Below are positions 37,729 to 56,500 of a stretch of DNA of 64,000 nt, piece by piece. The stretch is from positions 1 to 64,000 of the forward strand of contig JAPEUI010000013.1 in NCBI GenBank assembly GCA_026025075.1, written 5' to 3'. Below the pieces are notes generated by a model, which did no database searches, had not been told where the DNA came from, and worked only from the letters and a program-made list of their open reading frames with translations. This DNA comes from Vezdaea acicularis (taxonomy: Eukaryota). Position numbers and translations under genes: made by a program. How positions within the stretch are numbered: the stretch's first letter is position 1; every line of letters begins with the position of its first letter.

Positions 37729-40700
37729 CTACCAGAACTCCGCGAAGGGGTCTGTCTCCGCCACATTCATCCACTCATCGAGGTGACCCTCCGCACCTAC
37801 CAAGATCCGTTCCGCCTCCATATCGACCTCCTGAATATCAGGATCCCTAGCTTCACTGCCGCCAGCGTCCCCAGCCTTACTAGCCCTACCATTCCTGTCA
37901 CCAGCACCTCTTGTCTCTCTATTCATACGCTTCTTCTTCCTTCGGCCACCATCACCCTCAGCCTCACCGGCCCTACCACTCCTGTTTCTGTCGCCACCAG
38001 TACCCCCTGCCTCTCTGTTCTTACGACTTTTATATCTGTGGCGGCCACGAGTACCCTCATTCTCCCTAAGCCTATCGCCTCTGGCTCTATTGCCACCAGT
38101 GCCCCCAGCGTCATTGGATCTGACACCTCTGGCCATACTGCCATTTGAGCCCTCGGCATTGTCCCTGCGAGACTTGCTTGGCTGTACGTTAGCTCCAGTG
38201 GTCGGCGGCGGCGTGCGCGGAATTCGGTTGTAGAATTCATCATAAGCACAGCCAGAGCCCTCGACGGACGTGGCTGAGGGTGTCATGGTTTTTATTTGGC
38301 GGACCTCGAGTCGTCTCGGGCGAGGTACATGATTCGCACGGGTTGCGCTAGGGCGTACGGGTACGGGATTGCTCGAGTGATAGGTCGCGGAGGGCTTTTG
38401 AACGGGAACTTCCTTTTCGGAAGGTAGTGGAGGCAAGTCTCGGAACGAAATGAGCCTGTCTCGGGGGTTCTTGAAAACTGGCTTAGGAATTTTCGTGTTG
38501 TCAACGATCGTTTTAGGAAAGATACGGGTGAACTTATCCAGTGGTTCGAGGAAGACACTGCCCCGTTCCTTAACGGCCTGGGGGTTGTTGTAGAGCTTGT
38601 TAGGAGTTTTGTGATTCAAGAGGAACCCACGGTCAACTTCCGACCTTCCTTCGCCGAGGAATGATTGTGGCGGCTCATCGGGAAGGAAAAGGTTCAAAGG
38701 TTTGGGATCTCTCGCACTGCGCTTTTCGACTGGTTTGTAGTTTCTGCGGACCTCTTCCAGCATTTTCGCAAGCTCCTTTGGATCTCTTCGCGGTGCTTCC
38801 GACTCTGACGAGAGGTCAGAATCTTCTCTTTTCGCAGCGTTTTCCTGATTTCTCTGGTCTGCTTCCGACTCTGACGAGAGGTCAGAATCCTTTCTTTTCG
38901 AAACCTTCTCCTGATCGCTCTGGTCTGCTCCCGACGCTAAGAAGAGGTCAGAATTTTGGCTTTCTGCAACTTTCTCCTGATCTCTGTGTTCTGCTTGCGA
39001 CGCTAAGAAGAGATCGGGATCTTGGCGTTCTGCAACCTTCTCCTGATCTCTCAAGTCTGTTTCCGACTCTAAGAAGAGGTCAATATTCTGCCGTTTTCTT
39101 TGTTCTACTTTCGACTCTGAAGAGAGGTCAAAGTTTTCGCCGTTTGACGTGGTCTTCTGGTCTCTTTGTTCTGCTTCGAACTCTAGGAAGAGCTCGGAAT
39201 TTTGGCTTTGTGCAACCTTCTGCTGCTTTATTTGTTCTGCTTCCGACTTTGAAGAGATGCCAGAATCCTCGCTATCTGCCGCCATCTCCTGATACATTTG
39301 TTCTACTTCCAATTCTGAAGAGAGATCGAGATCCTTGCTTATCTCTTTTTGTATGCTCAGCCTTTCAAGGTTGCGAGTAACCAAGTGGCTAGACTTTTGA
39401 GAGCTTGCTTCCTTAGGCTTAGCTTCATCAGAGGTAGAATCTATAGCGATTGGTTTTTGGTCAGTGCTTCGCTTTTTTATGTACTTATCAGCAACTTGCG
39501 AACGTGTTGGTGTCGATGTGAAATTAGGTCGAAAAGGCTTCTTCTTTTCTTTTACAGAAAGTGTTGGTGTCGATGTGAAATTTGGTCGAGAGGGCTTCTT
39601 CTTTTCTTCTATAGAAAGTGTTGGTGTCGACGTGAAATTTGGTCGAAAGGGCTTCTTCTTTTGTTTTACAGCACGAGCCTGAACCTTTTTCTGTTCTTTC
39701 GCTGCCCAAGCTCGAGCTCTCTTTGCCGCATGAGCTCGTGTCTTCTTCCATTCTTCTACCTCACGAGCTCGAGCCTTTTCCTGTTCTATTTCCATCTGAG
39801 CTTGAGCCTTTTCTTCCTCAGCCGCTGCCAGTTGAGCTTGGCGCTTCCTACGATTGCCACTGGGAGATCGGATGGGGCTTTCTGTACTCGAAGTATCTGG
39901 CCCACTTGGGTTATAAAAGTGACTTCTAGCGGGACTAAAGCAGGGTCGTTCAAAGCCATTGGCTCGCTCATCCGTGGTTGGTGTGGACGGCACCACCTTT
40001 CTGGATCTATATCTTGTCCGTTTGCGAGGGTGTTTTTCTACAGAACCTTCCGATTCGTCTTCCATTTCTTCACTGACTAATACCCAAAGGTCAGCAATCT
40101 GTAAAGTTGACGTCATGGAGTGCTCCCTGTATAATGAACATCAAAATGCTCCCTGCATTATAAGGCTCCCCATTTCATAGACGGCAATTTTGCCCACGCA
40201 ATGAATCATTTTCAACTCAGCGTACGGCAAGATTTGCCCACGCCATGGAACTCTTCCCATGCCCTCAAGAGCTAATGCCCTCGGGCAAAGTATTGGTGAC
40301 AAGTTTGAGTGCTTGTCTACTCCCCTTTTATTGTTTCATTGGAGATATCCAAGCAATTCGATATCATTGTCCGAGAAAAACGCATCTTTCGACAAAGTCC
40401 AACTCCCCCAAGAGACAAGAATCAAAGACTAGATAGATCAAGTTTCCCAAGTAACAGGAATTTAAAGGAGTGAAAGCCAGGACTATACAAAGCCGACTTA
40501 ATCAAAGAAAAAGACACCAATTCCACGTACCTTTATTTTTTCTTCGCTTAGCGTTTCTTTGCTTTGCGTATTTACCCTGATAGAATTCGTCGATCTCACT
40601 TGGTGGTGCAGAGTGCTCTTCTGATTCGTCGTCTGTATCATCTGAAAATAACCAGGTTAGCAAAGTATCAAATTAAAAGTCGCAATTATCCACGTATAAT

Positions 40701-41723
40701 GAAATTGCCCGCACGTAATAATAAAGCTCTGAGTGCGTAACAAAGCTCTACATACGTGATGAAGCTCCCTACACGTAATGGAGCCCCCCATACGTAATAA
40801 AGCTCTCCGTACGTAATTAAGCTCTCCGTACGTAATGTAACTTTCCGTATGTTCCAGAGCTCTACGCACGTAACAGAGATCTCCATACGTAATGAACTTC
40901 TCCACACGCCATGAAGCTTTCCGCACGTCATAGAAACCTCGTCACGCCATGAAGCCCTCCCCAACGTTATAAAATTTTTCCCACATAATGAAGCTGCTCT
41001 CACGTAACGAAGCGTCTCTCACATAACAAAGCTCCTCTCACGTAATGAAGCTCCTCTCACGTGATGAAGCTCCTCTCACTTAACAAAGCTCGTCTCACGT
41101 AACCAAGCTTCCTCCAAGGAACAAAAGCACAAGAGCCTCATTCTAATGGAATAACTTCACGCGGGATGAACGTAGTTGAAATCCATATAACGAAATGACT
41201 CCAGAATTATAAACGTAAAGCACGCTTATACAACAAGAAGCTCTCTGGATGATAAAGGTAAAACACCTTTTATTTCAAGACCAAGTACACAGTGCTTAGT
41301 TTATAGCACTTACCGGAGATGTATCCTTTTTCCTTGCGAGCCAAGTATCTCTTTAGCCCAGCCTTATTCTTTTCAATGTAAGGGGTTTTCATATTCTGCA
41401 ACCACCGCTCGGCACGTTGCGTATGGGTGGTGCGTTCGGTGCAAGCATCGGACTCGTCTGAATCATTTTGATCACTGTCTGTATGGGAGGTTTAGCAAAT
41501 GTTCACCAAGTAAGTTTGAGCTCGCTTTTGATAAAGTCGTAACAAAGTTGCTTGAATATCTCTTTGGACTCCCGATTGTCTCTTGAGGTCATATATTTCT
41601 GCTCAAAGATTACTTACCTTCAATGAGTAATGGCGAATTCCTAGTTCCTCGAAGCGAATACGAAGGTTGGGGAGGGTGACGTGCGCGAGCGCGGTCGAGT
41701 CTCAATTGTCTGTTGTTTACCAT
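37729..41723 (-). CDS. Orphan low-complexity repeat protein (~909 aa); predicted exons 41723-41618, 41478-41314, 40641-40531, 40076-37729
   Basis: Three canonical introns (donors GTAAGT, GTAAGT, GTACGT; branch sites GCTAAA/GCTAAC/GCTGAC; acceptors CAG, CAG, TAG), all phase 1, give one stop-free 2,730-nt frame from ATG 41723 into the 795-aa ORF. No recognisable domain. Confidence 0.72.
38780..39335 (-). repeat. Coding tandem repeat, ~66-bp (22-aa) unit DL(S/F)(S/L)ESEA(D/E)QRDQEKVA...
   Basis: The translation repeats DLSSESEADQR/DLFLASQAEHR/ELFLEFEAEQR, about 8-9 degenerate copies. Confidence 0.85.
39500..39662 (-). repeat. Coding tandem repeat, 57-bp (19-aa) unit KKKP(F/S)RPNFTSTPTLS, three near-identical copies
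   Basis: gtgttggtgtcga(t/c)gtgaaatt(a/t)ggtcga occurs three times at 57-bp spacing. Confidence 0.92.
40691..41115. repeat. Degenerate ~19-bp minisatellite (consensus ~CTCACGTAATGAAGCTCCT), about 22 copies
   Basis: Head-to-tail units with no spacers, e.g. ctcacgtaatgaagctcct-ctcacgtgatgaagctcct-ctcacttaacaaagctcgt. Confidence 0.9.
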
Positions 41724-43025
41724 CGTCGATATTTCTTTGGAGTGGTGTGAGATCTCAGAGGTATTATTATAGTATCATTCGTGAGGTACTGTAACCACGG
41801 ACTTTAGGACAGGTAAGATGTGCTAAAGGAGTTCGTATGGGGACTTTTGATACCTCACAGTGACCTTGACGGATAATTTTGGCTCGTTAGCGGCACAAAG
41901 GAGTAATAAACAAGGGAATAAGGGGCATGAATCTTTTCCAGCAGACCAGAAGTTGATGGAGTGAGAAGGGACAATTTTCAAGTGAGACAATGCTGTGGAC
42001 GCTCACAGCACCCGAACTTGAGCCAGCCTCCTTTTGAGATGATCTCCTCTACGATCGATGAAAGATTTGAGAAACCAAGTAGACTTCCGAGCTCAGGAGC
42101 TTCTGCGAGATCAAGGAGGGTGGGGAGGAAGCGAGTGAGGATCCACGGACGTTGGTTGGAAACGCTGGCCAGGCTTTGATGCAAGCCAGGCCCCTTTCGT
42201 AATAATCTTTGCTGCGAGCTGCAAAGAGAATTCAAAGAGGGGATCAAGAAGAAGAATAAGCTTGAAAGCTTGTAAAGAATCTAAGAAGTATGCAGTTCAA
42301 GGGGAGCCAGAGTCTGGCGAAGACGGTCGGGTGAGTGTGGACGCGGGTGGGAATTTTGAAGGGGTGCGCGACGATCGCTTCACCCTCAAAATTTGGGTGG
42401 GCACACAAAGAACACCAAATAATTGAGGGTAAACCCTAAGATGATGGACTGTCGCTCCACTGCTGGCTTGCTTACAACCCAAATTTGAGTGAACCTTGCT
42501 CTAGCTTGCGTGCAAAAGCTGAGGGCTGCTTGCGGTGTGTCGCCATTCACATTGGGAGTGGCCATATCAGCAACCGGACAATAATAATACGTCATATTAA
42601 GGGACATTCTACGAGAGCAGACATCTACGAGACTTGACATTATCAAGTCCCCTCATCTTGAAAAAGAAACGATAATGCAGATTCCATCAAGGAGCTACTA
42701 GCTTGATCATTGATGAATCCGAAATGATAAAAAGATACTCCACTGTCGCAGACCGGCCACGGACGATTGTATGCCTTCCATCAGGCACTTGCATACGCTA
42801 ATATATCCTGTCCTCCGATGAGCGATAAAGTGTTACCATTCAAAACATCCTAGTGATTTGCGTATGGCTCCTGTTAGCTCATGAAATCCTGGGTGAGGGT
42901 AATGTGCTTTCGACCGGAGACACGCCGTGCGAGTATGTTGTCAGCTCTTGAGGCTCCATTGCCGTTGGGTCGTCGCTAAGCCGGCTAGTTTGGCGAGTTT
43001 GGCGGGCTTGGCGAGGCTGGCGAGG

Positions 43026-43395
43026 CACCCTCTGAGCAAAATAGTTGAGACAGCAAAAAACTAGCGAGGTATCTTCCCAGCAAAATTGTGGGAGAGGGTA
43101 CCTCGCTTCTAGACAAATGCGAGAGGTAAAGTACCCACCCAGTGAGCAAAATAGTTGTCACACCAGAAAACTAGCGAGGTATCTTACCGGCAAAATTGTT
43201 AGAGGGGGTACCTCGCTTCTGGTCGAAATGCAAGAGAGGTAAAGTACCCTACCACCCTGATTTGGTGAGGAGGTACCTCGCTTAAGCTTTCGTGTGACAA
43301 CGTTTTTGCTCACCGGGTGGTACCTCACCACACTGATTTGGTGAGAAGGTTCCTCGCTAATTTTTCGCCGTCTAAACTATTTTGCTCAGAGGGTG
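43026..43395. mobile_element. 370-bp non-autonomous TIR element with CAC...GTG termini and 5-bp target site duplication CGAGG (Transib/CMC-like signature)
   Basis: CGAGG|CACCCTCTGAGCAAAATAGTT ... AACTATTTTGCTCAGAGGGTG|CGAGG. The first 21 bp of the TIR are perfect and similarity extends imperfectly to ~75 bp. A second nested TIR-like pair lies at 43136 and 43319. Confidence 0.85.
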
Positions 43396-43960
43396 CGAGG
43401 CTATGGTTGAGACTTGGCGCGGTTATCTACAAAGTCGCCGACCGTGACTGATGGTGACGGCTGGCATGCTACTGGAGCAGATTACGCTGTGGCCAACTGA
43501 GATATGTAATGGAAGAAGTCTCATTTTGCAACGCCTCCTTCTACCTGATAAGCCATAGCAATGAGTTCGCCCCTGTTTTTGAATCGTCATTTGAAGCGTA
43601 TGAAGAGTAATCCTCATCCCTTTTCATCATGCACTCTATCATGCATGCCATATTTCAAGCTTTTAGAACAGCTAGAAGCCTGTGGTATTCATTATTCTCC
43701 TAAGTTTGCATGTCCTAATATATTCTGTACAGCATGAATCATTGATTGTATTCATCAAAGCATTGAAAGAAAAGAATCTCATTCGTCCAGCCAATTATCT
43801 TCCCTTGAATGGAGACGAACCAATGGAGAAGACTACCAAAGCAAAAGAGCCTCAGACTGTTCATAGTGCCCCAGCGCGGGGTCCGACACACAGTTATCCC
43901 CAATGACTGCTCATCCAGTCTCACTCACTGCAATTCCTCCTCCCCAAGTTCATCGGCCAT

Positions 43961-44940
43961 CTATAGCATCAACGCGGCCATGAGACCACCGAAGACAGTT
44001 ACGTACGAGGCAGCAACGGCAACAGCGCCGCCGGTGAAAGTTGTTGGCTTGGATGAAGTGGTCGCGGTGCTAGTCCCGGTGGTCTTTGCCGTGCCCGTGG
44101 TCGTGGTAGTGGCGTTAGTACCCTTTGCGGTGCCCGTGGTTGTGCTGGTGGCGTTAGAAGCGGTGGTCTTCGCGACGCCCGTGACCGTACTCGTCGCGTT
44201 GGTGGTCTTCGCAACGACCGTGGTCGTGCTGGCGGCGCTGGAACTGGTGGTGGTGGTGGTGGTGGTTCCGTTGCTGATGAGGGTGAAGTTGGCGCAGGTA
44301 ATGCGGGTCGTGTTGGCGAAGTGGATAACGATCGAACGGTTGCCAAAGAAAGACCCGAGACCCTTCAGAGTCGATGCATACGGATCGGTGAAGCTTTGCC
44401 ATATGTCAGTCAAGATATATTGCAATTAGTTGCGAGAGGACTCACGTTGCACTGAACGGATCAGCCTTTATGGTGCCGTATTTGCCAGCAAGGTCGCCGA
44501 CTTGGCAGGTAGCAGGGAGGGCAGGGTTGCAAGGGGGTTGCTCGCCACGTTGGAACGGGTCAAGATGAGCAAGGGTGCCTGTACAATTGCCGTTTGATGG
44601 GACTGGGGCGTCGTGGATATGATACACTTAGGGGGTTTTCAGCGCCTTATACTTCATCTTTGAGCTCTAAGACGTCAGACTTACGGAAAGGGCCACCTGA
44701 GGTTGGTAATCCGGAGAACGCGACTGAGAAGGCAACGCCGGTACCATTGGACGAAACACCAGTGATGGAACCACTTGGCTTGCCGGCAATGCTAGGTAGG
44801 GTGGCCTTGTAGGTCACTCCCTTCGGGTTGGTGGAGACGATGGTAGCATTACCAAGAATGCCTGTTACTGGGACTGTATTGGACTGGGCAGCAGCTAGTC
44901 CAACGCATGAGAGCGCAGTGAGGATAAGAGTTGAACGCAT
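43961..44940 (-). CDS. Secreted, probably GPI-anchored Cu-only superoxide dismutase (SOD5-like); three exons (44940-44685, 44626-44446, ~44394-43961)
   Basis: Signal peptide, GGPFLYHIH, C..TLAHLDP, CQVGDLAGKYG and RSIVIH...RITCANF, then a Thr-rich stalk and a hydrophobic C-terminus (VTVFGGLMAALML). Confidence 0.9.
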
Positions 44941-50548: not shown

Positions 50549-53500
50549 TCACCCGGCAATCCTATCCTTCAAGCCCCCAAACCAACTACTCCTCCTATCC
50601 GCGCCGCCACTAACGGCTCTCCCCCCACTGGCCACACGTCCATAATACCCTACGGCGGGCTCAGTTGGGAGATCACTCCTGCGTTTCCTCCTCCTGCCTT
50701 CTCGATCAAGCTCTCGCTCTCTGTCCGGCCGCGCATCTCTGTCACCGCCACTATCCCCACTACTGCGGCCGCCCCGATCTTTCTTGCGGCGGCGCCTTTC
50801 ACCCCGTGCGGCGTCCGCGTCGGCGTCCGCGCTGGTCACGACGGGGTCAATACCGCGGCTGGCGGGGGCGTCGGTGATGATTGGGTCTTCGGGTGGGGGA
50901 GGGGGTGGTTCGACGATCTGGTCGCGCACCCAGGAGCTAGTGTGGTCGTTTGCGTACGGCGATAACACAGGCGGGGGAGGCGGGGCGAGGCCTCGATCGG
51001 CGTCGCCTCGTGGGCTGAAGTAGTCGTCTCCTGGGGCGGCGCTCTGGCGCCTAGAGTCTCCGCGGGGCCGGCTGGCCGAAGCGTCTTTACTTGCGCGTTT
51101 TGCGCGGCGCTCCTCGCGGCGGCGGAGTCGTTCTTCCTCGTCGTCTTGAACGGGGGAGCGGCGACTAGTGGTTGCCTTGGGGGGATCGACAATGTACGAG
51201 CTGCGGCGCTTGTCGGACTTGCTGCGCGGCTTAGAGGTATCTTCTGGGCCCGAGGCGGCGGCGAGATCGCGGTCGCGCCGTTTGGAGGAGCGGCGGGTAT
51301 CTCCGACTTCGACTTCGCGGGTAGTTCGTTCTTCGCGGGCGGCGCGACGGACGCGCTTTTCTTCTGCGCGGCGTTCGTCTGCTTCGCGGGCGCGCGCACG
51401 ACGGGTCTCCATCTCGCGCTCTTCGCGCTCGCGGCGTCGCCGTTCACGCTCTTTGCTGGCTGCGATTTCGGCCTCGCGGGCTTCGCGCTCTTCACGGTCC
51501 CGATCGGCTCGCTTCTGGCGGCGCTCGGCGCGGCGGGCGTCCCGCTCTGCCTCATAGGTATCAGCGTCGGCATCGGTCGTGGCGCCGACTCCTTCCGTGC
51601 CTGTGGCGGGCTCGCCGCCGGAGCTGTCTTGCACAGAGCGCCGTACTTTGCGGTCGTCGCGACGGAGGCGCTTAGTGTCGCCTTCAGAAAGCTCGCGGGC
51701 ACCGCTTTTGCGGCGGCGGGAGTCGTCTTTGGTCTCATAGATGCCTTTGCTCCGGCGCTTGGGGTCCTGAGCGGGCTCGGTGGTATTTGCCCGTTTGGCA
51801 CGGAAGGACCCGAAGAAGCCCATTAACTTAGCATTTGGTCGCGGAGGAGCGGCCATGGTTGAGGAGCGGCGAGGTGGTGAGCGAGGAGGTGAGACGAAGG
51901 CGATGTCTTCAGGCCCGGTCTGTACGTCTGGGCCATCGGTGGCACCGCCGGCATCGACCATCACGAGGTCATCGTCTGCAAGCGCACGAGACTCGCGTTT
52001 GGATTTGGATGACTTTTTAGCTCTGGCTGGAGCCGGAGCCGGAGTGGAGATATGCATATCCTTAATGGCCGCATTATAATCTTCCGAGACGCCAAAGGCC
52101 ATATCGGGATCGTGGTCGTCCAGACCGCGAGTAGTCTCTCGTTTGGACTTGCTACGGCCCAGATTGCCCCTGTTGGGCTTCTCGGCGGGTGGGGGAGGAT
52201 CGTCCGAGTCGACGAGGTCATCGTGCCCATCAATCATGACTATGTCATCGTCCATGAGGCCAACTGGAGTTAAGGGTTCAAGATCAGCTGATGGAGATGA
52301 AGGCTCGGCCATGTCTTTCTTACCAGGAGCCTTTTCCTTCTTGCGCTTAGACTCTTTCCTCGCGAGTCTCGGCTTATCAGCACCGAGAAGCTTCGCAGCT
52401 TTTGAAGATGAAGACGGCATATCTGTGGGTAAATCGTCTGGCGGCGGGGACATCAACCCATCACCTGATACGTCGATAGATTGTCTTCGCGAAGGTGTCT
52501 TTGTTGTACTCGCCCGACGGGCTGCGGATGGTCTCCTCGCAGGAGCTTGACCACCTAAGAGAAAGCTTGAAAAGCTTAAACCTCTCGGCTTCGCCGGTTT
52601 CGTTGCAGATTGTGGCGCCTTATCGGAGCCAGATGACTTTGTAGATGCCTTCTCGACCTCTTTGTCGGTTGTTATTATTGGTTTCTTGACGGAGTTTGTT
52701 CGACTTAGCGCGGGCGCCTTCTTCGCTGGAGTTGTAGCAGCAGCCTTGGCTGGTGGTGAAGTCTTACGCGGTGGCGCGGCGACTCCCCAGAATCCCCAGG
52801 ATGGTCCTAAATCGTTTCGTACTATCCTTGCGCGCTCCTTCTTCGCTGCAGACTTGATCGGCGTAGCAGCCGGTTCTGGCGGAGGAGTAGGCGGGCCTGG
52901 TGGTGGTGTTGGAGCAGCGACGGGGATATCATCCATTCCCTTCTTCTTGGTTACAGTCTTCGTAGCCTTGATCCCCTTCTTGATGGGGGTCTTCTTTTCC
53001 ACCACCACTTCTACGATATCGTCGTCGTCTTCGTCTTCGTCTGGAAAGCTGCCAGGAACGGTCTTGTTGCTTTTCTTTACTTCGACAGCCTTTTCTTTCT
53101 CGGCAGCAGCGGCAGCTTCTTCTTTCTTTTGTTTCGCGGTCTTGATGGTTTTCGAAGTCGTACGAGTAAGAGTGGCGGTCTTCTTTGAAGAAGATTCGGC
53201 TTTGGCGTCAGCTTTGGGGGCTGCCTTTTCGGTCTCAGCCTCGGGAGGCGACTTTGACTTTCCTGAGTCAGCGACGGCTTTGCGCTTGATCGTCGTCGCG
53301 TCGTCCTTTTTCACGACTTTCTCCGCCTTCTCGGCCTCCTTCTCCTTCTTCTCTTTCTCGAGCGCTTTGACCTTCTCCGCGACCGATAGTTTTCGCTCGA
53401 CTTTGGAAGTCGTCGCAGATGCGAGCGCGGCCTTCTTGGAGGCTGGGCTCGTCTTAGTCGAGGGCGGGGGAGGTGCCGCGAGATCACTCGCGTCTTCCAG

Positions 53501-56500
53501 GGCCTTCGCTTCCACCGCCTTACTAAGCGAGTCGCTCTTATTGGTGGCAGTTTCCTTGTCTTTTGATTCGTCTGGCTTTTTAGTCGTGGCCGACTTCTTG
53601 GCTGTCCCCCCCCAAAACCCCCACCCATCGGCGGCTTTCTTTGCTGGCTTGGCTTCTGGTGATGGCGAAACTTCTGTTGGAGTTTTCTTTTCTTCCTTGA
53701 CTGGCGTCTCATCCTCGTCGAGTATCAGAATATCATTATCGCTAACCTTGTCAACACTCTTGATGCTTTTGGTGCTCTGACTAGTTGCCGTCCTGGTGAG
53801 CTTGCTACCGGGCTTGCCCTTGCCCTTCTTTGCCTTTGCCGCGGCGGCATCGGCCTCAGCCTTGGCCTTAGCTTCCGCTTCCTCTCTCTCCTTCTCAGCT
53901 GCCTCCTCTTCCTCTATCCTGATCCTTTCCGCCTCCTCTTCCTCTTCCTTCTTCTTTCGTTCGGCTTCTTCCTTCTCTTTCGCCTTCTTCTCCTTCTCCT
54001 TTTCCTTCCGTTCTGCTACTTTCGATTTCGCCGTTGTAGTGGTAGTAGTAGTCCCACCACCCATGCTACCCCAGAAGCTTTTGGCCGCTTTGGCAGGGGT
54101 TACCTCCTGCTCGTCAGACTTGCCGGACTTGGTCGACTTCAGTTCATCGTCGATCTTCTTGTCATTTCTCTTCTTCTCATTCTTTCCGTTCTCCTCGTTC
54201 TGCTTTTCTAAGGCCTTGGCTAGCTCAGAAACCTTGCCGCTCTTCGTGCCTTTCTTGGCAGCTTTCTTCTCCTCCTTCGCCTTCGCCTTTTCATTCTCCT
54301 CTCTTTCCTTCTCCTCCTTTTCTTTCTCCAATTTGGCAGCTTTCTCCTCTTCTGCTTCCTTGGCTTCTGCATCTTGCTTACTGAGAATAGCCTTCTTCCC
54401 ACCTTTCTTTTTGGCCGTAACAGGCGCAAAGGTCCCCCACTCCTCCATCGGATCCGGTTCCGGCTCTGTGAGATCCTGATTCGGAGGGGTGGGCGCTGGC
54501 GGTGGAGGTTCTAGTGACGTAAATCCCTTCTTCTTCTTCTTATCCTTCTTGCTATTGGCACCAGTACTCCAGGTATCCCATATTTCAGGCTCTGCTGCCT
54601 TCGGCTCATCGACAGAGTCAGGCTGGACAGACTGAGCTGACACATCGTCCTTCTCGACTTCAACAGCGGCAGCCTTAGCTCTCGCCCTTTCCTTTTCTCG
54701 TTTCTTTTTCTCTTTAGCGGTCAGACCAAAAGCCCAATCATCATCGTCATCACCATCGACCTTCGTGGGTTTTTTCTCTTCCACTTCGTCGGGTTTTATG
54801 ACTGGGTCGCCGAGTTCTATCAAAGGGTCATCCGCAGTGGCGGGTACAGGCGTAGACTCCTTTTCCTTCAATTTCTTCGCCTTCTTCGCCTCTTTCTCTG
54901 CCTTCTTCTTCTGAGCTGGGGTCAATTCTTCCACCGCAATGTCCCAGAAATTAGAATCTCCACCCATATCTGTGATTTCTGGAACGGGGGGTGGGGGCGG
55001 CGGCGGCGGTGGCGGGGGAGGGGGGGACGCTTCTTTGATCAATGATCGAGCCTTGGAATCAGCCGAAGCGGTGGAACCTCGTTTACTCTTCTTCTTGGTC
55101 GATTTCGCACCCCAGTTCGGCCAGTCCTCCGCTTCATTAGTAGTACTAGCCACAGCTATAGACGCCGTGTCAAAACTAAGTATGTCATTATTGCTGATGC
55201 CTGGTTCTGTGACGGAATTTTTCTTCTTCTTGTCCTTCGACTTGGGTCCCCATGCGTTCCAATTGCTATTGTCGTCTTCTTCTGGTGCCGGGACTATTTC
55301 AATCGACTGCATTACCTCAGGCTCAGGGGAGTCTTTAGCGGCAGCGGCACCCTTTTTGTTTTTCTTCTTATTGTTAAAGGTTGGCCAAGTGTTGTCCATG
55401 AGGTCAGCAAGCGGGTCTGTAGAGGTTCCCTTTGCCTTTTTCTTCTCCTCCTTCTCCTTCTTCTCCTCTTCCTTCTTCCTCTCCTCTTCCGCTTCCTCTT
55501 CCTTCTTCTTATTCTCTTCCTCCTCCTTCTTCTTCCTTGCTTCCTCTTCCTCCTTCTCCCTATCATCAGTGACAGGCTCCCCTATCGCACCAAAGGCATT
55601 CTTTCCTTTCTTCTTCTTTTTGGTGCCCGTAGATTCCCACGAATTCCAGGTATCGTTTACAGTAGTGGAATTAGTTTTCTCGATGGACTCTCCATTTACT
55701 TCCTCCGGCTTAACCTCAAATTCATCGAGGAAAGAGAAAGCATTAGCCTTCTTATCCTTCTTGTCTTTCTTCCCCTTCTTGTCTGACCCGTTCATATTAG
55801 TCCCCCAAATACTTTTGTTCTTTGCGTCATCGTTGTCGGCTTCGTCGACAATAGCAACGATCTCGTCCAGGTCACCTTCCTCGTCTTCATTGAGCGGATC
55901 GTTGAGCCCCCAGCCGAAGGTAGTTTTTGCCTTGGTTGGCTTTAGTCCACCCATGGACCAAGGACTGTCATTGGACTTGTCGACCTTCTTATCCTTATCC
56001 TTATCCCCGGCCTTTCCTTTGAGCCCTTTGCCTTTTCCGTCATCTTTGTCTTCCTTGTGGTTGTTGTTGAGCGGATCTGCACCACTGAAATCCCAGGCGT
56101 TGCCGGTACTCCAATCTTGGCCCCACGCCCCGAAGCCTTGGCTATCGCCACCAGTCTTGGTCGTGGAGCCCAAGAAGTCAAGGTCTATTTTCGGCGCATC
56201 GTCGTTGAGACTGACATCTCCAAAGTCCATCATCGAGTCGATGATCTTCTTAGAGTCAGCAGGGGGAGGCGGTGGGGTCGGTTCAGTCTCCTTGGCCTTC
56301 TTGCCCTTCTTTTTCTTAGTAGTAGCAGGGGTGAAACTCCATTCGTCCTCGGCAGCGACCTCGCCTATATCTCCTCCATTAGCAAGCGGCCAGCCGTTGC
56401 TCATGGTGATGTCCTCCTCCTCCTTCCTTTTCTTCTCGGCGGCTTCTTCCTCTTCCTTCTTCTTCTGCCCCTCTTCGTCCTCTTCTGTGAATTTTCCCTT

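Follow-up and report, generated by a model that had tools for sequence, protein, structure and literature searches.

A new MITE family with CAC ends and 5-bp target-site duplications, found as a nested pair in a Pezizomycotina fungus

The locus and its host

The window, by which we mean the whole stretch of 64,000 nucleotides that was analysed, contains open reading frames (ORFs) that include those of Prp31, a Clf1/Syf-type HAT-repeat factor, Rad10, a fungal AAA ATPase and a Fungal_trans factor. The best named matches of the Prp31 ORF, at 77–79% identity, are to Pycnora, Geoglossum, lichen-fungus MAGs, Leotiomycetes and Onygenales, while metagenome proteins reach 82%. These identities place the host among the Pezizomycotina.

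Several other features of the window were also recorded. An uninterrupted ORF at 50549–56404 on the minus strand specifies a 1,951-aa, K/E/P/A-rich low-complexity protein with no Pfam match, and its DNA has a strong AT skew (−0.38 to −0.41). A 795-aa ORF at 37729–40116 (minus strand), also with no Pfam match, contains internal tandem peptide repeats (KKKPFRPNFTSTPT three times, together with many of the form D-L-S/F-L-E/S-E). Overlapping minus-strand ORFs at 40657–41003 carry reiterated ITYGEL.YVRRAL-like peptides, which suggests that the DNA, richer in AT here (GC 0.43), contains a short tandem repeat. Finally, a gene at 43961–44940 (minus strand) begins at 44940 with what resembles a signal peptide, and a poly-T/S/A tract lies at 43961–44425; judged from these sequence features, its product is likely a secreted Thr/Ser-rich (GPI-type) protein. 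The 3' end of this gene lies about 570 bp from the element described below.

The feature under study is a 370-bp element at 43026–43395, in an intergenic region of this ascomycete genome. CGAGG borders it on both sides (43021–43025 and 43396–43400), and the sequence across it reads ...GGCGAGGCTGG-CGAGG / CACCCTCTGAGCAAAATAGTT ... AACTATTTTGCTCAGAGGGTG / CGAGG-CTATGG. The components of the locus are as follows (TSD, target-site duplication; TIR, terminal inverted repeat), with the basis of each assignment in brackets.

42983–43025, plus strand: left flank, a degenerate 9-mer tandem array of GGCGAGKYT-like units, with the outer insertion site in its last unit (repeat spacing 9)
43021–43025, no strand: outer TSD, left copy, CGAGG (sequence)
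43026–43135, plus strand: outer MITE copy, left part, comprising the perfect TIR at 43026–43046, a long imperfect arm and a central segment up to GTACC (repeats, alignment)
43131–43135, no strand: inner TSD, left copy, GTACC, which is part of the outer copy's own sequence (un-nested copies with one GTACC)
43136–43319, plus strand: inner MITE copy of 184 bp, its ends CACCCAG...CCGGGTG (repeats; a contig match in sequencing run X6 begins exactly at 43136)
43320–43324, no strand: inner TSD, right copy, GTACC (sequence)
43320–43395, plus strand: outer MITE copy, right part, comprising the right arm and the perfect TIR at 43375–43395 (repeats, alignment)
43396–43400, no strand: outer TSD, right copy, CGAGG (sequence)

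Two nested insertions

The element ends in a perfect 21-nt TIR (43026–43046 against 43375–43395). A search of the 64-kb window with this TIR, allowing up to 3 mismatches, returned three matches, namely the two ends and 43136–43156, compared with none in 100 shuffles. The repeat search also delineated an outer pair of imperfect arms of 78 nt with 79% complementarity (43025–43102 with 43319–43396), an inner pair of 50 nt with 78% complementarity (43135–43184 with 43271–43320), and direct repeats at 43026/43136 (85%) and 43244/43320 (74%). Aligned with one another, the four arms have 42 invariant columns in their first 76. All four termini in the window begin with CAC, giving CAC...GTG ends, and each arm contains the motif AGCAAAA three times, about 10, 27 and 54 nt in from the end. 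No further copy was found within the 64-kb window besides the nested pair.

The inner copy (43136–43319) sits within a 181-bp copy of the same family. GTACC stands on both sides of it (43131–43135 and 43320–43324), outside any tandem array, and since the bases adjoining the two pentamers differ (A against G on the 5' side, C against T on the 3' side), the inner duplication is exactly 5 bp. Taking out the inner element together with one GTACC restores an outer element of 181 bp that is collinear with the inner one; the two copies are 85–86% identical over their left 110 nt, and both share ...GAGAGGTAAAGTACC, which is followed by the right arm as (C)TACCAC or TCACCAC. Folded as single-stranded DNA, the inner copy reaches −47.4 kcal/mol (z −8.5) and the outer copy, with the inner one taken out, −54.4 kcal/mol (z −11.1). 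The GTACC target occupies positions 106–110 of 181 in the outer copy, beside the apex of its long stem.

An earlier reading, made from the letters of the window alone and referred to here as the sequence-only reading, had placed a 370-bp element with CGAGG on both sides at these coordinates, had given it a perfect 21-bp TIR and had taken the host for an ascomycete; all of this is borne out, the host by its Prp31 matches. It had also described four TIR-like units. Their positions stand (starting at 43026 and 43136, and ending at 43319 and 43395), but the single element into which they had been gathered gives way to a nest of two copies, the inner of which has a GTACC TSD of its own.

Other identities for the region were considered and set aside. 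The region contains no tRNAs, as a tRNA-derived SINE would require, and a solo LTR is contradicted by the lack of TG..CA ends and by arms that are long inverted repeats. A scan of the region against Rfam returned no family at threshold; a sub-threshold MIR844 match (22.4 bits, E 0.09; gathering score 70) was taken as that of a generic hairpin.

The outer copy was inserted in the last unit of the 9-mer array, duplicating CGAGG. The array to the left of the insertion (42983–43025) reads GGCTAGTTT GGCGAGTTT GGCGGGCTT GGCGAGGCT GGCGAGG, and the outer CGAGG thus lies inside a (GGCGAGGCT)n array. The corresponding site was seen in sequencing run X6 (organism B), where a 7,920-nt contig matches 42400–43026 and 43395–44000 and omits the element; TG separates the two matched stretches. 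Its flanks carry 87 and 79 substitutions (~86–87% identity), and the orthologous site is without exactly 43027–43394. This contig shows a related species in which the orthologous site is empty, and the outer copy arrived after the split from organism B. Read literally, the joint is GGCGAGGC+TG+GCGAGGCTATGG, which is one extra GGCGAGGCT unit relative to the simple predicted empty site. Because the outer CGAGG lies in the array and the X6 site is one unit longer, the outer TSD taken alone is not clean, whereas the inner one is. Given that the insertion struck a degenerate 9-mer array, the simplest account of CGAGG is that a two-unit allele was hit and the pentamer is a TSD; strictly, a three-unit allele may instead have had 4 bp replaced by an insertion that made no TSD. 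A further copy of the same family was inserted later, close to the tip of the foldback that the outer copy forms, duplicating GTACC, and one foldback MITE within an older family member supplies a second, independent 5-bp TSD. A 6-bp TSD (GCGAGG) for the outer copy was rejected, as it needs asymmetric ends and receives no support from the inner copy.

Copies in public sequencing runs

A search of public sequencing runs located the sequence in four moss-metagenome runs of one study and in three further runs with small shares. Contigs of four runs were compared at a minimum likeness of 80%: X1 and X2, which are metagenomes, X5 (organism A) and X6, which comes from another study. All run data are contigs, in which depth does not equal copy number, and some of the copies in X1 and X2 may belong to other fungi that were sampled along with the host. 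Matching records numbered 24 in X1, 9 in X2 and 17 in X6, most of them on the element itself at 80–95% likeness. In X1 and X2 the flanks of the locus are nearly unchanged (record 1, 2 differences in 656 nt; record 8, 6 in 681). In X5 the sole match (of 1.6 kb compared) is a 152-nt contig at 43849–43999, which is intergenic and not the element; it has no substitutions and one gap, and the run is very small (3.45 million letters).

Joints that run from 43120 or 43125 directly to 43320 were observed in contigs of three runs: four times in X1 (2 + 2), twice in X2 (1 + 1) and once in X6. They represent four distinct junction variants, each with ...TAAA directly before a single GTACC at 43320. These copies are un-nested, and in effect they show the site of the inner insertion unoccupied. 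The X1 contig of the right flank (record 8) ends with GAGAGGTAAA, 10 letters of the un-nested junction, before 43320, which hints at an X1 strain without the inner copy here, that is, at an insertion polymorphism; with fewer than 31 letters past the joint, the contig is too short for bridging.

Other contigs place members of the family elsewhere. A copy that differs from the inner one at 3 positions in 160 (98% likeness) is preceded by about 800 nt of unlike sequence to the left of 43136, and therefore sits at another locus (X1 record 7, with the same piece in X2 record 15). Similarly, one X6 contig consists of an unrelated flank followed by a match that begins exactly at 43136. Loose contig ends contain further termini, CACGCGGTT-AGCAAAA, CACGCGATT-AGCAAAA and CACGCTC..., and the terminal starts of other copies thus read CACGCGG..., CACGCGA... 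and CACGCTC.... One-sided flanks were seen as ...GCTAC/CACGCGG and ...TTTAG/CACCCAG. Contigs with other copies reach one terminus each, so the TSDs read are two, CGAGG and GTACC. Since palindromic repeats in contig graphs produce joints of the ‘opposite strands’ and ‘goes back’ kinds, such joints were left uninterpreted. Overall, the family is multi-copy and diverged, and many of its copies, ending in CACGC or CACCC, are present in both the Pezizomycotina host and a related species.

Long copies and a transposase were also sought. Among the 16 window ORFs scanned there was no transposase family, and the contig-collection scans found no long or autonomous copy. Specifically, a scan of metagenome contigs with a degenerate terminal pattern returned 24 loci, none of which (0/24) extended in blastn beyond the 22–26 nt of the pattern itself; these are chance hits, about the number expected from the information content of the pattern. 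Scans of genome contigs with two internal patterns gave 0 loci and then two bacterial MAG contigs that match over only 18–29 nt, which are chance hits as well, and a scan of viral contigs gave 0 loci.

Both copies are short (181 and 184 bp) and non-coding, with a 21-nt perfect and a ~76-nt imperfect TIR and a strong foldback. Their TSD is of fixed length (5 bp in both of the insertions read), and the family is multi-copy with empty sites (the X6 site, the four un-nested junction variants and the contigs at 80–95% likeness). We conclude that the MITE family is real and new, and that the 370 bp are probably two nested, ~182-bp foldback MITEs, non-coding and non-autonomous elements of the cut-and-paste type, moved in trans by a transposase encoded elsewhere.

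The same observations bear on an origin without transposition, by which CGAGG would merely mirror the GGCGAGGCT array and the palindromic block would stem from local duplication or inversion. Such an account gains something from CGAGG being part of the 9-mer unit and from the extra unit at the X6 site; it sits badly with an inner GTACC duplication that lies outside any tandem array, an orthologous site that lacks the element to the letter, a 21-nt perfect TIR with no chance matches, and un-nested copies and copies at other loci in three runs of two studies. We consider it very improbable.

The Transib-like signature proposed in the sequence-only reading is real, and it rests on insertions at two sites, on an orthologous site that is empty and on copies elsewhere that are not nested. 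That reading, which also allowed that the genome may host an autonomous transposase of a Transib-like or undescribed CMC-clade kind, is supported in part. The 5-bp duplication that it took for exact at CGAGG is not clean on its own; the inner GTACC is. The empty site for which it had suggested a search in other strains was seen in the related species of X6, albeit one 9-mer unit longer than predicted. Of the outcomes that it had named as adverse, neither a single-copy element nor a differing TSD length was seen: the family is multi-copy, with many 80–95% copies in X1, X2 and X6, and both readable TSDs are 5 bp.

The superfamily of the mover

In the mechanism we propose, a DDE transposase whose gene lies elsewhere in the genome would mobilise the copies in trans, would recognise the CAC(C/G)C ends together with the AGCAAAA motif, and would cut its target with a 5-bp stagger. 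The insertion near the foldback tip may reflect a preference for distorted DNA. RAG transposition shows a preference of this kind.

On balance, the likeliest source of such a mover is the CACTA/Mirage/Chapaev/Transib (CMCT) clade taken as a whole, which has CA..TG ends and TSDs of 2–5 bp (PMC12730594). Within this clade, a strict Transib MITE would imply a RAG1-core-like transposase in an ascomycete lineage, with hairpin-forming excision and 5-bp staggered integration. Transib elements make 5-bp TSDs in GC-rich targets, and their TIR of 38 nt has the form CACAATG + 23 nt + AAAAAAATC, with invariance limited to CAC and to two A's of the nonamer (PMC1131882). The present family agrees in the 5-bp TSDs of both events, CGAGG and GTACC, and in the CAC found at all four window termini and at the loose ends of other copies. 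The arrangement CAC.... + 22 nt + A-rich 9-mer (AAAAAACTA, AGAAAACTA and GAAAAATTA), present in three of the four arms, resembles the Transib layout. The GC contents of the two TSDs are 80% and 60%, and Transib and RAG favour GC-rich targets (PMC1131882). Against this, heptamer positions 4–7 differ from the consensus and the arm length is 76 nt, not 38. Each arm has the A-rich motif as one of its three AGCAAAA repeats, and the RSS-like spacing may therefore be incidental. Target GC is equivocal, as the 35-bp insertion sites have 60% and 43% GC against 51% for the window (n = 2) and one other copy has an AT-rich flank, TTTAG. Finally, among fungi Kapitonov and Jurka found Transib in soybean rust only (PMC1131882), and none turned up when 1,730 fungal genomes were surveyed on the basis of Pfam RAG1 (PMC5751038). 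The one ‘CMC-Transib’ entry that literature searches found is a repeat-annotation count of 2 in a genome table for Sporothrix, and carries no weight. Taken together, a strict Transib origin appears rather unlikely. A broader reading, in which the MITEs are the footprint of either a Transib/RAG1-like transposase or an undescribed CMCT sister lineage with 5-bp TSDs, active after the species split, is possible but to be held tentatively.

A CACTA-like lineage that makes 5-bp TSDs is a comparably tentative candidate. The termini have CAC but lack CACTA, and the AGCAAAA motif recurs three times per arm, subterminal repetition of this kind being a CACTA-like trait; fungal EnSpm has CAC..GTG ends with 3-bp TSDs and CMC elements have TSDs of 2–4 bp (PMC12730594), whereas both events here gave 5 bp, outside the 2–4 bp of CACTA/EnSpm. 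A mover from outside the CMCT clade (hAT5, Ginger2/TDD, a KDZ element with variable TSDs, a MULE with short TSDs, or a wholly undescribed transposase) could also make TSDs of 5 bp. Families of hAT5 with 5-bp TSDs exist (PMC12730594), Ginger2/TDD elements make TSDs of 4–5 bp (PMC2836005, PMC10045372), and hAT, Ginger and MULE are common in fungi (PMC5751038); the TSDs of KDZ2 and KDZ3 in Cryptococcus are 4–8 bp (PMC12810828). The ends, however, tell otherwise, for all termini begin with CAC, which argues against both hAT5 and Ginger2. The third terminal base of hAT is always G (PMC1131882, Figure S7 legend) and is C in all termini here, and the TGTNR ends of Ginger2/TDD (PMC2836005) contrast with CACCC and CACGC in this family. 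As for KDZ, the reported TIRs are 139–241 bp long and the TSDs mostly 8 bp (PMC12810828). An origin outside the CMCT clade is in our view improbable.

The question matters because the combination of CAC ends and 5-bp TSDs marks the transposons from which the vertebrate RAG1 recombinase descends, and such transposons are considered missing from fungi, one rust apart. A recently mobile Pezizomycotina MITE family with this hallmark offers, in its termini, a handle for locating its transposase in any complete assembly of the lineage; once found, the enzyme would show either that Transib reaches into the ascomycetes or that CACTA has a relative with 5-bp TSDs. Should the mover prove to be Transib/RAG1-like or a CMCT sister lineage, it would have been active in Pezizomycotina despite a survey that reports Transib as the sole DNA-transposon superfamily missing from fungi (PMC5751038). 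Should an ordinary superfamily supply the mover, the finding adds just another MITE family to those of fungi.

Literature searches on fungal MITEs and DNA transposons whose TSDs are 5 bp long returned no ascomycete family. With hAT5 the present family has in common the 5-bp TSD, but not the third terminal base, which is C. It resembles fungal EnSpm/CACTA elements (Kojima 2025, PMC12730594) in its CAC..GTG termini, its repeated subterminal motifs and its fungal occurrence; it differs from EnSpm, and from CMC elements in general, in the length of its TSDs (5 bp in both events, against 3 bp and 2–4 bp, respectively), and from CACTA in ends that read CACCC or CACGC. Its likeness to the Transib and Transib-N families (Kapitonov and Jurka 2005, PMC1131882) covers the 5-bp TSDs, the CAC...GTG termini and the habit of often inserting into copies of other transposons, and may extend to the A-rich 9-mer that lies 22–23 nt from the end. 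Unlike Transib, it departs from the heptamer at positions 4–7 and has 76-nt arms with three subterminal repeats; it is known here from MITEs alone, and its host clade, the Pezizomycotina, is without reported Transib (PMC5751038).
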